From positions 1 to 25,152 of the forward strand of contig CAYIYX010000003.1 of NCBI GenBank assembly GCA_964367775.1: a DNA stretch of 25,152 nucleotides. Direction: 5' to 3'. The notes under the pieces are model-generated. The model had not been told where the DNA came from. It ran no database searches and saw nothing but the letters and a program-made list of their open reading frames with translations. Shown piece after piece: positions 8,368-11,528 of this stretch. How positions within the stretch are numbered: position 1 is the stretch's first letter; every line of letters starts with the position of its first letter. Source of the DNA: an uncultured Candidatus Saccharibacteria bacterium (GTDB taxonomy: Bacteria; Patescibacteriota; Saccharimonadia; Saccharimonadales; Saccharimonadaceae). The position numbers and the translations under genes are program-made.

Positions 8368-8396
8368 TTTTCAACGCTACGCATAGTGTCTATAAT
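8368..8396 (+). promoter_or_regulatory. Promoter for riboswitch 1 and the DUF4430 operon
   Basis: Perfect TATAAT at 8391-8396 and weak -35 TTTTCA 17 nt upstream. TSS about 8403, roughly 19 nt before the aptamer. Confidence 0.6.
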
Positions 8397-8421
8397 CATG
8401 CATGTTAACAAACAGACGCCA

Positions 8422-8550
8422 GCCAGGGACGGGAAACCGTGTGAAAATCACGGACTGTGCCGCAACGGTAATTCGAGCAGCCTATGAGGGTAGATGCTTG
8501 AAAAGTCCGACGACCGTCCTTGGCAAAAAGGCCTTTCCCGAGCAGGATAC
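8422..8550 (+). ncRNA. Cobalamin riboswitch 1 (compact type with L5-L13 kissing loop)
   Basis: Closing stem GCCAGGGACGG (8422-8432)/CCGTCCTTGGC (8514-8524); GGGAA; P4 CCGTG-TGAAAAT-CACGG; P5 ACTGT-GCCGCA-ACGGT; P6 TTCGAGCA/TGCTTGAA; J6/3 AAGTCCGACGACC; P13 TCC-CGAGCA-GGA. It lies upstream of cobalamin-uptake-type genes. Confidence 0.92.
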
Positions 8551-8576
8551 CGATTGATGCAGTTTCTAGTATTTAT

Positions 8577-8610
8577 CGTCGTTATCCACGGATGGCGGCG
8601 TTTTTGTTTT
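8577..8610 (+). terminator. Riboswitch-controlled intrinsic terminator (expression platform 1)
   Basis: 10-bp stem CGTCGTTATC/GATGGCGGCG (with G-U pairs), CACG loop, then TTTTTGTTTT. The alternative pairing 8545-8554 with 8575-8587 would act as antiterminator. Confidence 0.8.
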
Positions 8611-8639
8611 AAGTAAGTACTAACGAAAGGTGAATATAT

Positions 8640-9041
8640 ATGAAAAACAATAAAAAACTTCTAGCGGTGATCGGGTTGGCAGTTGTACTGCTCGGGCTTG
8701 GGGGTTGGTTCGTTTTTGGGCAGAAACCTGCGACGGAACAAGCGACGACCGTGTCTCAGGCGCAAAGCGCGATTACTTTTTCTGCCGACGGGAAAGAGGC
8801 AAGCTATAAGGGACAAGACGGCAAGACGGCGCTTGAGGTTCTGAAGAGTCTGACGAGCATCGACAGCAAAGAAAGTGCGTATGGCACGATGGTAACAGGT
8901 ATTCACGGAGTAAAGGCAGAAGACAACAAAAACTATTGGGCACTCTACGTCGAAGGCGCTTACGCGAGTGAAGGCGCAGGAACACTTAAGACTAAGAGTA
9001 CCGACACATTAACGTGGAAGTTAGAGGCCATAACACAATGA
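8640..9041 (+). CDS. Membrane-anchored DUF4430 (transcobalamin C-terminal-like) protein, putative cobalamin-binding
   Basis: N-terminal basic plus hydrophobic anchor. TALEVLK, YGTMVTGIHGVKA, YWALYVEG...EGA is the DUF4430 pattern. AAAGGTGA RBS at 8626-8633. Confidence 0.85.
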   Translation: MKNNKKLLAVIGLAVVLLGLGGWFVFGQKPATEQATTVSQAQSAITFSADGKEASYKGQDGKTALEVLKSLTSIDSKESAYGTMVTGIHGVKAEDNKNYWALYVEGAYASEGAGTLKTKSTDTLTWKLEAITQ

Positions 9042-9592
9042 AAAAATGGACATCTGACGCAAACCTAAAGCTTTTGTTGGTTCTTGCACTCGTTGGTTTA
9101 GGTGTTTGGAGCCGTTTTGTACCGCACCCTGCGAACTTTACAGCGCTTACCGCGGTCGCTCTGTTCGGCGGGGCGATGTTGCCGAAACGATGGAGTGTTG
9201 TTGTCCCGGTACTCGCGATGATTTTGAGTGACCTATTTATAGGAGTGTCATCCATTTCGTTTGTCGTTTGGTTTAGTTTTGCACTAGTAGCACTTGTAGG
9301 ACATTACATAAAAACGCGAGCTAGCGTCACGAACGTTGTCATGGCGAGCCTGGCTGGATCGACTATATTCTACCTAGTGACAAACTTTGCGGTTTGGACT
9401 GAAGGACGCATGTACGGCATGAATCTTGGTGGGCTTATACAGTGCTACATAAATGCATTGCCGTTTTTCCGTAACATGCTTGTTGGTGACCTTATATACA
9501 GTGGATTACTGTTTGGCCTGTATGCTCTCGTTATCTACGGCGTCAAGACCCTACGTAGCGCGAAGCACATTCAGGTAAACCAAGTAAATTAA
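9038..9592 (+). CDS. DUF6580-type membrane protein, putative ECF S-component-like cobalamin transporter (184 aa)
   Basis: SRFVPHPANF..LTAVALFGGA, SDLFIG, FYLVTNFAVW, CYINALPFFRNMLVGDL; about 5-6 TM. ATGA overlap with the DUF4430 gene gives start 9038. Confidence 0.8.
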   Translation: MKKWTSDANLKLLLVLALVGLGVWSRFVPHPANFTALTAVALFGGAMLPKRWSVVVPVLAMILSDLFIGVSSISFVVWFSFALVALVGHYIKTRASVTNVVMASLAGSTIFYLVTNFAVWTEGRMYGMNLGGLIQCYINALPFFRNMLVGDLIYSGLLFGLYALVIYGVKTLRSAKHIQVNQVN

Positions 9593-9604
9593 TAAATAAA
9601 TCAC

Positions 9605-9710
9605 TTCAGGCGGGGAATCACGTAAAAGCGTGAGCTGTGCCGCAACGGTAGGTCGAGTAGTCGACGAGCCCGGATACTGCCTGAAAGTCACTATATCCCG
9701 AGCAGGATAC
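9605..9710 (+). ncRNA. Cobalamin riboswitch 2 (minimal)
   Basis: Closing stem TTCAGGCGG (9605-9613)/CTGCCTGAA (9677-9685); GGGAA; P4 TCACG-TAAAAG-CGTGA; P5 GCTGT-GCCGCA-ACGGT; P6 GTCGA-GTAG-TCGAC; J6/3 GAGCCCGGATA; P13 TATCC-CGAGCA-GGATA. It shares 16-nt and 15-nt identical blocks with riboswitch 1. Confidence 0.9.
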
Positions 9711-9736
9711 ATAAAACGACACGTGCGTATTTTTGT

Positions 9737-9764
9737 ATATCTCTCGGGAACGAGAGATGTTTCT
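9737..9764 (+). terminator. Expression-platform hairpin of riboswitch 2 (weak terminator or start-occluding stem)
   Basis: ATATCTCTCG-GGAA-CGAGAGATGT (GNRA loop), followed by TTCT and then ATG 9765. Confidence 0.6.
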
Positions 9765-11528
9765 ATGTCAAACTATACCAAATTACCCATGTCACCAGAG
9801 GTTCGTGCGTACGCTGAAATGCAGCGCATGCAGGAGTTTGATGTGGTAAACCAAGAAGCAAAAAGCCGGTGGTGGCATAAGCTTGGCGCGCAGACCTGTA
9901 ACTCCGTTCAGTATAGCCCAGAATCGCAAAGCAATGTCTCGAGGGAAATAATTTCGGCTGATGAAATAGTCGACAGGACGACCGTGGAGCAGCTTGCGCG
10001 GCAACTTATAGACAACTATGAGCCGAGTCCGAAAAGACTGCGTGAACAGGAAGCAGAAGACAACGCTAGGACGGCGCTTTTTGAGGCGTTGACGGCCAGC
10101 GGGCACATGTCGGTTGTTACGCTCGAGGGTGATCCGGTAGAAGTTCATGAACAGGTTTTGCAGCGTTTGCTGAACGCGTACTTTCGTTCTGGAATTCCGC
10201 CTCACGAAAAAGCACGTAACTTTGAAGAGATATGTGAAGAGTTGGTAGTCCAGGCTACCTTTGAGCGCATGCAACAAGGGGATGTCCCGTCCGATACAAA
10301 AATCAACACGTTGTCAGATTATGCACATCCTCTCGGGTCAGAGGCTCAAAAATTAGGCTATCGACCCAGTGACGGCAACGATCAACTAGGGAAAGGCATG
10401 ATTCGTGAAACCTCTTTTGAACAGCTGGGTGGTGTGTGGACGAGAGTTATAAAACAAATTAGTCGTAGTAATACCTTTGCCCCAACCACGATTGCAAAAC
10501 TGCAACATGCCGGGCTGCAGTTACCGAAGCGCCATGGTGAAGCTGATGTGCAACTGCTCGGGTCGCAGATGCTCAGCGTAAGCCACGGTGCGCTTGAGGT
10601 AATGCGGTTGCTTGACCATTTGCAACGTGGTTTTAAGGTTATGTACGGTGAGCCGGTGACAAAAGATACTATACCCTATGAGAAGCTAGAAGAAGTATCG
10701 CAGTTACGAGAGGCAGAAGTCGAGTTTCACGTAAAAGATTTGGCAGATTATGAAAGAGAACTCGACGATCTCTATAAAAAAGGGAGTATTACCGAGGCCG
10801 AACATACTAAGCGATACGTCGAGGCGCTGCGCGAACACGTGCGGGCGATTTGCGTGCGCATACCGACGTATACCAAGGGAGCATTAGGCCAGAAGGTGGT
10901 TGACGATTACTACCGTGCTCATACATTGTACGAGGCGGGAGACTCAGTTGGGGCTCAGAGCGTCGTGAGTGGCGCAAGTGGCCGCGAATCTGCCGTCTCA
11001 GCGTGTGGTATGTCTACGACGGTGGAAAATAATAATCCAAACAGTCCAGAATCATCGCAGAAACAATCGGTACAGTCGATTCTTGAGCGTTCGCTTGAAG
11101 GTGATTGGACGAAACGCGTGGACCATTGTCCCATTTGTGGCTCAAAGGACATAATGGCACAAAAGCGAGGCGACAAAATACACGGTCTCGAGTGTGGTTG
11201 TTGGTCGGACGTATGTACCGGGAAGTACTACCAAGGCCCGGGAAGAATAACGTTCGGCGGCCAGGAAACTCAAGAAAATATAAAACAGAGTCGGGGTGGG
11301 CGCGAAACACTTTCAAATAACAGAGCATTGCACGAGAACGCAAAAAGGCTGTTCGGCGAAAGGGCGATCATAGACAGCCGCGTGACGGTTGGCGACCAAA
11401 CAATCAATATTATAGATAGTGTGACGGGCGATGTGTTGCTAGATAATGTCGACTTAGCAGTATTGTCATATATGTCAGCCTACACGGCTAAGAGCGTCGC
11501 ACATGATGATTTTGTGCTTGCGGCGTAG
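9765..11528 (+). CDS. Hypothetical protein (587 aa) with a C-terminal Cys-rich putative metal-binding ribbon
   Basis: The track's GTG 9630 start lies inside the riboswitch; the first ATG after the platform is 9765 (MSNYTKLP). Motif C-x2-C-x18-C-x-C-x4-C at 11127-11216. No TM or signal peptide seen. Confidence 0.8.
   Translation: MSNYTKLPMSPEVRAYAEMQRMQEFDVVNQEAKSRWWHKLGAQTCNSVQYSPESQSNVSREIISADEIVDRTTVEQLARQLIDNYEPSPKRLREQEAEDNARTALFEALTASGHMSVVTLEGDPVEVHEQVLQRLLNAYFRSGIPPHEKARNFEEICEELVVQATFERMQQGDVPSDTKINTLSDYAHPLGSEAQKLGYRPSDGNDQLGKGMIRETSFEQLGGVWTRVIKQISRSNTFAPTTIAKLQHAGLQLPKRHGEADVQLLGSQMLSVSHGALEVMRLLDHLQRGFKVMYGEPVTKDTIPYEKLEEVSQLREAEVEFHVKDLADYERELDDLYKKGSITEAEHTKRYVEALREHVRAICVRIPTYTKGALGQKVVDDYYRAHTLYEAGDSVGAQSVVSGASGRESAVSACGMSTTVENNNPNSPESSQKQSVQSILERSLEGDWTKRVDHCPICGSKDIMAQKRGDKIHGLECGCWSDVCTGKYYQGPGRITFGGQETQENIKQSRGGRETLSNNRALHENAKRLFGERAIIDSRVTVGDQTINIIDSVTGDVLLDNVDLAVLSYMSAYTAKSVAHDDFVLAA

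Follow-up and report, generated by a model that had tools for sequence, protein, structure and literature searches.

The 25,152-nt stretch of an uncultured Candidatus Saccharibacteria genome analyzed here (assembly GCA_964367775.1, contig CAYIYX010000003.1, positions 1 to 25,152; hereafter the window) contains a locus with two cobalamin riboswitches on the + strand, in the order promoter, switch 1, DUF4430 gene, DUF6580 gene, switch 2, the gene for a 587-aa protein (P587), and an Nramp transporter gene. We read this locus, with a probability of about 0.65, as one vitamin B12-repressed operon under serial gating, in which the predicted uptake genes DUF4430 and DUF6580 would be gated once and P587 and Nramp twice by the same signal. 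The source genome was assembled from a metagenome and is fragmented (127 contigs, 0.96 Mb, 94% complete). A first-pass annotation of this DNA had placed it in a probable candidate phyla radiation genome and assigned DUF4430 and DUF6580 to the first riboswitch and the 587-aa gene to the second; the source is indeed a Saccharibacteria genome, all coordinates hold, and both assignments are supported by the analysis below, which adds the Nramp gene to the list.

Class membership of the two switches

The two switches were compared with a general and a lineage-specific covariance model. Against the Rfam model RF01689 (adenosylcobalamin class II, AdoCbl-II), the 'A-type' aptamer of switch 1 (8422–8524, + strand) scored 39.4 bits, above the gathering score of 36.5. 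The 'B-type' aptamer of switch 2 (9598–9687, + strand), which has a short P6, reached only 23.4 bits in a permissive scan (E = 0.016 in 1.6 kb), below that score. The lineage model (R1) was made from 35 cobalamin switches of other Saccharibacteria genomes and contains zero window sequences, which avoids circularity. It matched switch 1 at 8415–8551 (87.4 bits) and switch 2 at 9596–9711 (69.5 bits, with E values of 3e-18 and about 1e-17), and these were its only two matches in the window and in the entire 0.96 Mb genome. The call of two complete cobalamin riboswitches on one strand is therefore upheld, with the qualification that Rfam recognizes the first above threshold and the second is recognized by R1.

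Both switches have the conserved core and the pairing pattern of the class. Over 43 aligned switches, 97% of cells in P4, P6, and P13 were paired, and these stems contained 71 double-sided changes compared with about 15 in shuffles and far fewer with slid partners. The GGAA junction, the B12 box CUGUGCCGCAACGGU, and AAGYCCGA were invariant in all 43, including both window switches. P1 and P3 pair in both window folds. Additionally, CGAGCAGG(A) occurs shortly after P1 in every Saccharibacteria switch examined, and the P13 stem covaries (UUCC/GGAA, CUCC/GGAG, AUCC/GGAU). In class-II switches, the P13 loop L13 kisses L5 upon cobalamin binding (PMC5028336). L5 and L13 are both invariant in this Saccharibacteria lineage, so loop–loop pairing lies beyond the reach of covariation, and for switch 1 the role of L13 as kissing-loop partner of L5 is taken by analogy. 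Judged by sequence and structure, both elements are genuine class-II cobalamin riboswitches.

The window switches share two exact blocks: a 16-mer, CTGTGCCGCAACGGTA, present at 8455–8470 and 9635–9650, which is the B12 box, and a 15-mer, TCCCGAGCAGGATAC, present at 8536–8550 and 9696–9710, which is the regulatory hairpin P13 with loop CGAGCA. The first-pass annotation had taken these identical blocks, together with stems that differ and still pair, as a sign of selection on structure. The part concerning the stems stands, as the two aptamers are only 69% identical outside the blocks and their stems pair nonetheless, but the blocks are not peculiar to this pair. We considered recent duplication as their source and rejected it, because the B12 box and P13 are conserved class-wide and every one of the 43 switches compared, spanning genera and families, has the same blocks.

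Expression platforms and proposed mechanism

Switch 1 is preceded by the only promoter-like site found upstream of either switch, a sigma-70-like TTTTCA-17-TATAAT (8368–8396, + strand). This promoter is orthologous to that of the single switch in G007 and G005, two related genomes, and the promoter region is 87% identical to that of G007. The P6 of switch 1 has a long lineage-specific extension with a conserved CUAUGAGGGUAG hairpin. A CGAGCAG in one P6 strand resembles L13; we regard this as coincidence, as there is no co-variation in G003. Following P1 by 11 nt, the P13/L13 hairpin (8536–8550, + strand; stem UCC/GGA, loop CGAGCA) has a stem that covaries across the 43 switches. An antiterminator can form at 8545–8587 (+ strand), where the 3' half of P13 and downstream bases pair with the 5' strand of the terminator (fold of 8528–8590, −11.6 kcal/mol). 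The alternative is a strong intrinsic terminator (8577–8610, + strand; −13.3 kcal/mol) that the first-pass annotation had not used, consisting of a 10-bp stem at 8577–8600 and the U-tract TTTTTGTTTT. The same element is present in the related locus L079, and an equivalent in L073.

As a separate observation, a palindrome-like motif (TACTACAT... / CTACGCATAGTG) lies at window positions 8343–8358 and 8375–8390, and occurs as CTACATGTAG in other genera. It is found in or just upstream of cobalamin-riboswitch promoters of several Saccharibacteria genera (L015, L016, L017, L018, and L070 at 5895–5935), and switch 2 is without it. The motif may be a candidate protein operator in addition to the RNA switch.

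The expression platform of switch 2 is unlike that of switch 1. Its P1 pairs 9605–9613 with 9677–9685, and the P13/L13 hairpin (9694–9709, + strand; stem UAUCC/GGAUA, which covaries, and loop CGAGCA) folds 8 nt after P1. The antiterminator (9696–9749, + strand), formed by UCCCGAG in the 5' half of P13 and a downstream CUCGGGA, belongs to the minimum-energy fold; folding of 9688–9750 gives −20.1 kcal/mol, and a pairing of this type is also possible in five relatives (G007, G005, L036, L037, and G006). The competing hairpin (9737–9760; −14.2 kcal/mol) is followed by a short U-rich tail to 9764 on the + strand, adjoins the P587 start codon, and covers a purine-rich GAGAGA. The tail reads TTCT in the window versus TTTTT in L034 and L035, and relatives have ATTTTT(T)AA directly after the equivalent hairpin, so that it is a terminator there and probably hides the ribosome-binding region as well.

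From these elements, we propose the following mechanism. Transcription would start at the 8368–8396 promoter. With cobalamin bound to switch 1, the L5–L13 kissing loop would keep P13 closed and block the antiterminator at 8545–8587, so that the terminator at 8577–8610 would halt transcription ahead of the uptake genes. Transcripts that pass switch 1 would cross both genes and reach switch 2, which begins 12 nt after the DUF6580 stop. In its free state, switch 2 would form the long antiterminator at 9696–9749. In its bound state, the hairpin at 9737–9760 would form and terminate transcription, hide the P587 ribosome-binding region, or both. Both switches are predicted to respond to cobalamin, and repeated gating is expected to give a sharper dose-response for P587 and Nramp.

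One transcript or two

The serial gating reading needs a transcript that runs from switch 1 into switch 2, and we found indirect support for it. A promoter scan upstream of switch 2 found no promoter-like site in the window, L073, or L079, and the same scan detected the switch-1 promoters of the window and L073 (the L079 contig begins downstream of that region). The junction is short throughout. In the window, the DUF6580 stop codon at 9590–9592 is separated by 12 nt from switch 2, whose P1 begins at 9605, as first annotated; the distance is 9 nt in L079 and 1 nt in L073. This junction of 1–12 nt is kept despite P587 proteins that are only 43%–82% identical among the three. Two further loci join downstream genes to DUF6580 with no switch between: in L075, P587 follows after 18 nt, and in L077, Nramp follows directly, with a 57-nt gap, and both genes must then be transcribed from the switch-1 promoter. 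The earlier statement that no terminator separates the DUF6580 gene from switch 2 was also borne out, as we found no terminator-like site on the + strand from 8712 to 9737. Any read-through from switch 1 should therefore enter switch 2 regardless of other promoters.

Several observations weigh against a single, doubly gated transcript. TAAATT at 9585–9590 is a possible weak −10 box, kept in L079 and present as CAAATT in L073, and switch 2 is preceded by an A-rich, leader-like stretch similar to the transcribed leader of switch 1. In G111, a genome of another genus, two cobalamin switches lie on one strand, and the second, 3.9 kb downstream, has its own clear promoter. The break in the switch-2 U-tract of the window also means that this switch may act mainly on translation. 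Lastly, the only match from an RNA library was a 169-nt soil metatranscriptome contig, 100% identical to 10138–10283 inside P587, which could reflect expression or DNA carry-over. Searches of public runs returned no informative metatranscriptome, and the matching contigs show presence only, with no 5' ends or deletion joints.

These points could be accommodated if the locus were two adjacent independent units, with a weak promoter near the 3' end of the DUF6580 gene (its final 60 nt or so) driving switch 2, P587, and Nramp, and with only minor read-through from switch 1, so that P587 is in practice gated once. The possible −10 box shared by the window and L079, the TTAAYAA leader-like sequence in front of both aptamer types, and the separate promoter in G111 all fit this arrangement, and the Pfam match leaves out roughly the last 19 residues of DUF6580, so that the DNA encoding them could carry other signals. 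However, the candidate box has neither a −35 element nor a TG extension, it is CAAATT in L073, and no site passes the scan in any of the three lineages although the switch-1 promoters do. With no terminator after DUF6580, read-through must still reach switch 2, and L075 and L077 show that downstream genes can rely on the upstream promoter alone. We consider two independent units possible but rather unlikely.

The two aptamers may also differ in what they sense. The A-type P6 extension ends in a UGAGGG loop and the B-type P6 is short, and we suggest, as a speculative extension, that the aptamers are non-redundant and differ in affinity or in which corrinoids they select (AdoCbl-like forms as against cobalamins with a small upper ligand, for example). 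A two-threshold or two-ligand decision would then rest on a single promoter, with P13 as a natural splice point at which aptamers and platforms are exchanged between units. The uptake genes would follow one signal, and P587 and Nramp would respond only when both signals are low.

It is very improbable that switch 2 is a decaying relic that has lost its B12 response, leaving P587 and Nramp simply at the distal end of the switch-1 operon, the L075 arrangement. Such decay would agree with the Rfam score of 23.4 bits against a threshold of 36.5, with the interrupted U-tract, and with the L075 lineage managing without switch 2. Yet switch 2 retains P13 and every class-invariant core block, R1 gave it 69.5 bits, and the antiterminator/terminator alternative is conserved. 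Orthologues of switch 2 occupy the same position in L079 and L073, with pairing of P1, P4, and P6 kept among the three through compensatory changes (in P1 and P6).

The tandem layout is also not an assembly chimera joining two loci at the shared 15–16-nt blocks: a fragmented metagenome assembly with exact repeats common to both switches invites that suspicion, but assembler k-mers exceed the repeats in length, at least four other samples gave the same order in independent assemblies (L034, L035, L079, L073/L074), among them two independent Logan assemblies with 98%-identical P587 (L034 and L035), and a 1315-nt contig covers 8598–9912 with zero mismatches, so this explanation is effectively refuted.

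Locus variants in the genus

Related genomes carry the locus in five layouts, and we compared these at a site defined by a divergent DUF475 gene on the left and Nramp, DsbA, CBS, and AspRS (aspartyl-tRNA synthetase) genes on the right. The tandem form (layout 1) is found in the window, L034/35, L079, and L073/74. Layout 2 is the tandem without switch 2 (L075/76). In layout 3, Nramp follows switch 1, DUF4430, and DUF6580 (L077/78). Layout 4 has a single switch, then P587 or a relative of roughly 440 aa, then Nramp (G005, G006, G007, L036, L037), and layout 5 is the uptake unit alone at another site (G003). We note that the P587 homologue of L075 (2313–3884) has an in-frame TAG in place of a glutamate codon of the window (KRLR*NEAEDNART), which could mark a pseudogene, a sequencing error, or read-through.

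The single switch of layout 4 is a chimera, in which a promoter and aptamer of switch-1 type are followed by P13 and a platform of switch-2 type. The aptamer is 84%–91% identical to that of switch 1 (in G007, G005, L036, and L037), the platform matches that of switch 2 at 72%–81% identity and has its CUCUCGG/CGAGAG hairpin, and the change from one type to the other falls inside CCCGAGCAGGA. This composition points to gain or loss of a cassette at P13. From the sequence comparison, the cassette is gained or lost by recombination inside the conserved P13 hairpin, which would give chimeric switches in sister lineages. The layout 4 junction fits recombination between two P13 copies, or one crossover at P13 in the opposite direction.

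The direction of change is less clear. In a tree of Nramp and DUF475, the tandem lineage L073 groups with single-switch lineages, away from the window (support 91/92, moderate), so that either the tandem state is old or the locus is a mosaic, and P587 identities disagree with this tree. The polarity may have been an ancestral tandem with deletions, or a Campbell-type insertion that then spread through recombination. A simple insertion in the window lineage only was rejected, as L073/L074, L079, L075, and L077 show the cassette to be old and polymorphic at the locus.

Genes of the unit and B12 dependence

The first two genes are predicted to encode a B12 uptake pair. The DUF4430 protein (8640–9041, + strand; 133 aa; Pfam PF14478, E = 1e-13) has an N-terminal membrane anchor, and its domain resembles the C-terminal domain of transcobalamin (PMC4350170), with a weak Protein Data Bank (PDB) match to transcobalamin-1. 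It is a probable surface B12 binder. The DUF6580 membrane protein (9038–9592, + strand; 184 aa; Pfam PF20221, E = 1e-49) is a probable B12 importer, and the two genes overlap by 4 nt (ATGA) at the DUF4430 stop. A search of the PDB gave no sequence-detectable relative of DUF6580. The pair is conserved in G003, G040, G036, and G032.

P587 (9765–11528, + strand; 587 aa) ends in a Cys-rich zinc ribbon and has 42 homologues. The family was seen only in Saccharibacteria, nearly always with a cobalamin riboswitch upstream. We found no match for P587 in Pfam, NCBIfam, a PDB profile search, or the protein atlas, and a Foldseek search of the PDB with an AlphaFold2 model (mean predicted local distance difference test score 84) gave no fold match. 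P587 is homologous to a riboswitch-linked family of roughly 440 aa (HHalign probability 97.6%), at profile level only over the full length. In a single genus, the locus contains P587 or, in its place, the roughly 440-aa relative (window 9765–11528; L022 6130–7512; L051; L055). These proteins have the C-terminal zinc-ribbon region in common and differ strongly in the N-terminal part.

The Nramp/MntH-type divalent-metal transporter gene (11573–12913, + strand; Pfam PF01566, E = 2e-72) begins 44 nt after P587, and a scan of this gap found no promoter and no convincing terminator, so it is probably the last gene of the unit. Nramp is consistently the last gene of the B12-controlled unit across the genus, with no evident reason for B12 control of a divalent-metal importer. 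A 30-codon open reading frame (ORF) lies between Nramp and the DsbA-like gene in the window (about 12990–13278) and in relatives (L074 9994–10086; L077 8173–8265).

The genome's enzyme content suggests dependence on external B12. The B12-dependent NrdJ was the only ribonucleotide reductase found, and a CobA/BtuR-type adenosyltransferase is present. NrdD and a PduO-type adenosyltransferase were not found in searches of this 94%-complete genome. On these grounds, B12 import looks essential. The same genome also gave no match to EcfT (PF02361), which belongs to the energizing module of energy-coupling factor (ECF) transporters; EcfA was not searched for. Judging from the model matches, the locus is the entire riboswitch-controlled B12 regulon of this genome, which makes P587, its roughly 440-aa relatives, and Nramp strong candidates for B12-related functions in Saccharibacteria.

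Cobalamin riboswitches elsewhere in the family

The first-pass annotation had called the layout unusual, and this is true of the family, although the layout recurs in the genus as one of the five locus variants. In a family sample of 151 species genomes, 33 have a switch, and one (the window genome) has two close together. Elsewhere in the sample, the two switches of G111 are separated by 3.9 kb, and the second match in G093 is weak. RF01689 gave 29 matches, two of them false positives in coding regions, and 19 of the 29 precede members of the roughly 440-aa family, the commonest target of these switches.

Cobalamin switches in the same family also precede class I nrdAB (G111, L062) and class III nrdD (L054). 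At one locus of G111 (L070, contig C1, 2000–7400), a cobalamin switch with a terminator is followed by nrdA, nrdB, and a 67-aa Cys-containing ORF; next comes a second cobalamin switch, with a separate promoter in front of it, and then a gene of the 440-aa family. The gene order links the 440-aa family physically to B12-independent ribonucleotide reductase. A flavin mononucleotide (FMN) riboswitch-like element was also observed on contig C7 of G000 (L002, 1431–1566), with 49.7 bits versus an Rfam threshold of 66.2 (E = 1.6e-8).

Comparison with known systems

Literature searches on Saccharibacteria cobalamin riboswitches, DUF6580, and intercistronic or internal B12 elements returned nothing relevant, and we compared the locus with better-known systems. 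The closest relatives of the RNAs are class-II cobalamin riboswitches (RF01689, the AdoCbl-variant/AdoCbl-II group) such as env8HyCbl, with which the window switches share a four-way-junction core and the B12 box. Both also have the regulatory P13 hairpin, whose loop L13 kisses L5 upon ligand binding in the class and is predicted to do so in the window, and a short J1/13 linker, 7 nt in env8HyCbl (PMC5028336) compared with 11 and 8 nt in the window. In env8HyCbl, P13 carries the ribosome-binding site (PMC5028336), as it does in the relatives L044, L046, and L052, where the start codon lies a few bases past P13. The window switches differ in having an additional antiterminator/terminator platform after P13. 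They also depart from the RF01689 norm, switch 1 in its lineage-specific P6 extension and switch 2 in scoring below the Rfam threshold.

The predicted uptake genes recall the nrdJ-cbrS-cbrT-pduO cluster of Lactobacillus delbrueckii with its ECF-CbrT B12 transporter (PMC5997447). In both cases, a B12 auxotroph (predicted, for the window genome) with an AdoCbl-requiring reductase and an adenosyltransferase has a small binder and a small membrane protein. By Pfam, the window genome has such a CbrS/CbrT-like pair, with a binder-like DUF4430 protein (transcobalamin beta-domain-like) beside a small multi-pass membrane protein and NrdJ as the sole reductase found. Unlike in ECF-CbrT, no EcfT was found in the window genome, and DUF6580 is without a PDB sequence relative. 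In addition, control in the window is by riboswitch, not by linkage to nrdJ.

Bacteria with NrdJ can place B12-independent ribonucleotide reductases under B12-riboswitch repression, as with nrdABS in Streptomyces. The switches before nrdAB and nrdD in this Saccharibacteria family are similar. The window genome differs, as no alternative reductase was found and the switch-controlled gene is P587.

For regulation of the distal genes, the nearest comparison is with tandem riboswitches, which by definition occupy one intergenic region ahead of the gene or genes they regulate, and of which same-ligand cases have been surveyed (PMC12452182). The S-adenosylmethionine (SAM) and AdoCbl pair before metE is described as such a contiguous tandem (Sudarsan 2006, as cited in PMC9600662). 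In the window, two ORFs (8640–9592) lie between the switches, which do not share a single intergenic region; each comes with an aptamer and a platform of its own, on what we read as a single transcript. The locus probably works much like a tandem riboswitch for the distal genes, by analogy, with product-type, sharper or tighter repression expected. The coding genes between the switches give the first switch its own output, the uptake genes, so the gene sets would be gated to different depths. One promoter could in this way provide graded, hierarchical control, with uptake the first to be shut off and deeper repression of the second gene set. The five layouts found in nature offer a series in which to ask what a second switch contributes and how far aptamers and platforms are interchangeable. 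Chimeric switches with their junction at P13 amount to domain swaps made by nature, and the missing switch or gene block in related strains shows natural reshuffling of riboswitch parts. By its sequence features, each switch is an ordinary class-II cobalamin riboswitch plus a terminator platform, and it is the genes between two same-ligand switches that depart from published tandems.

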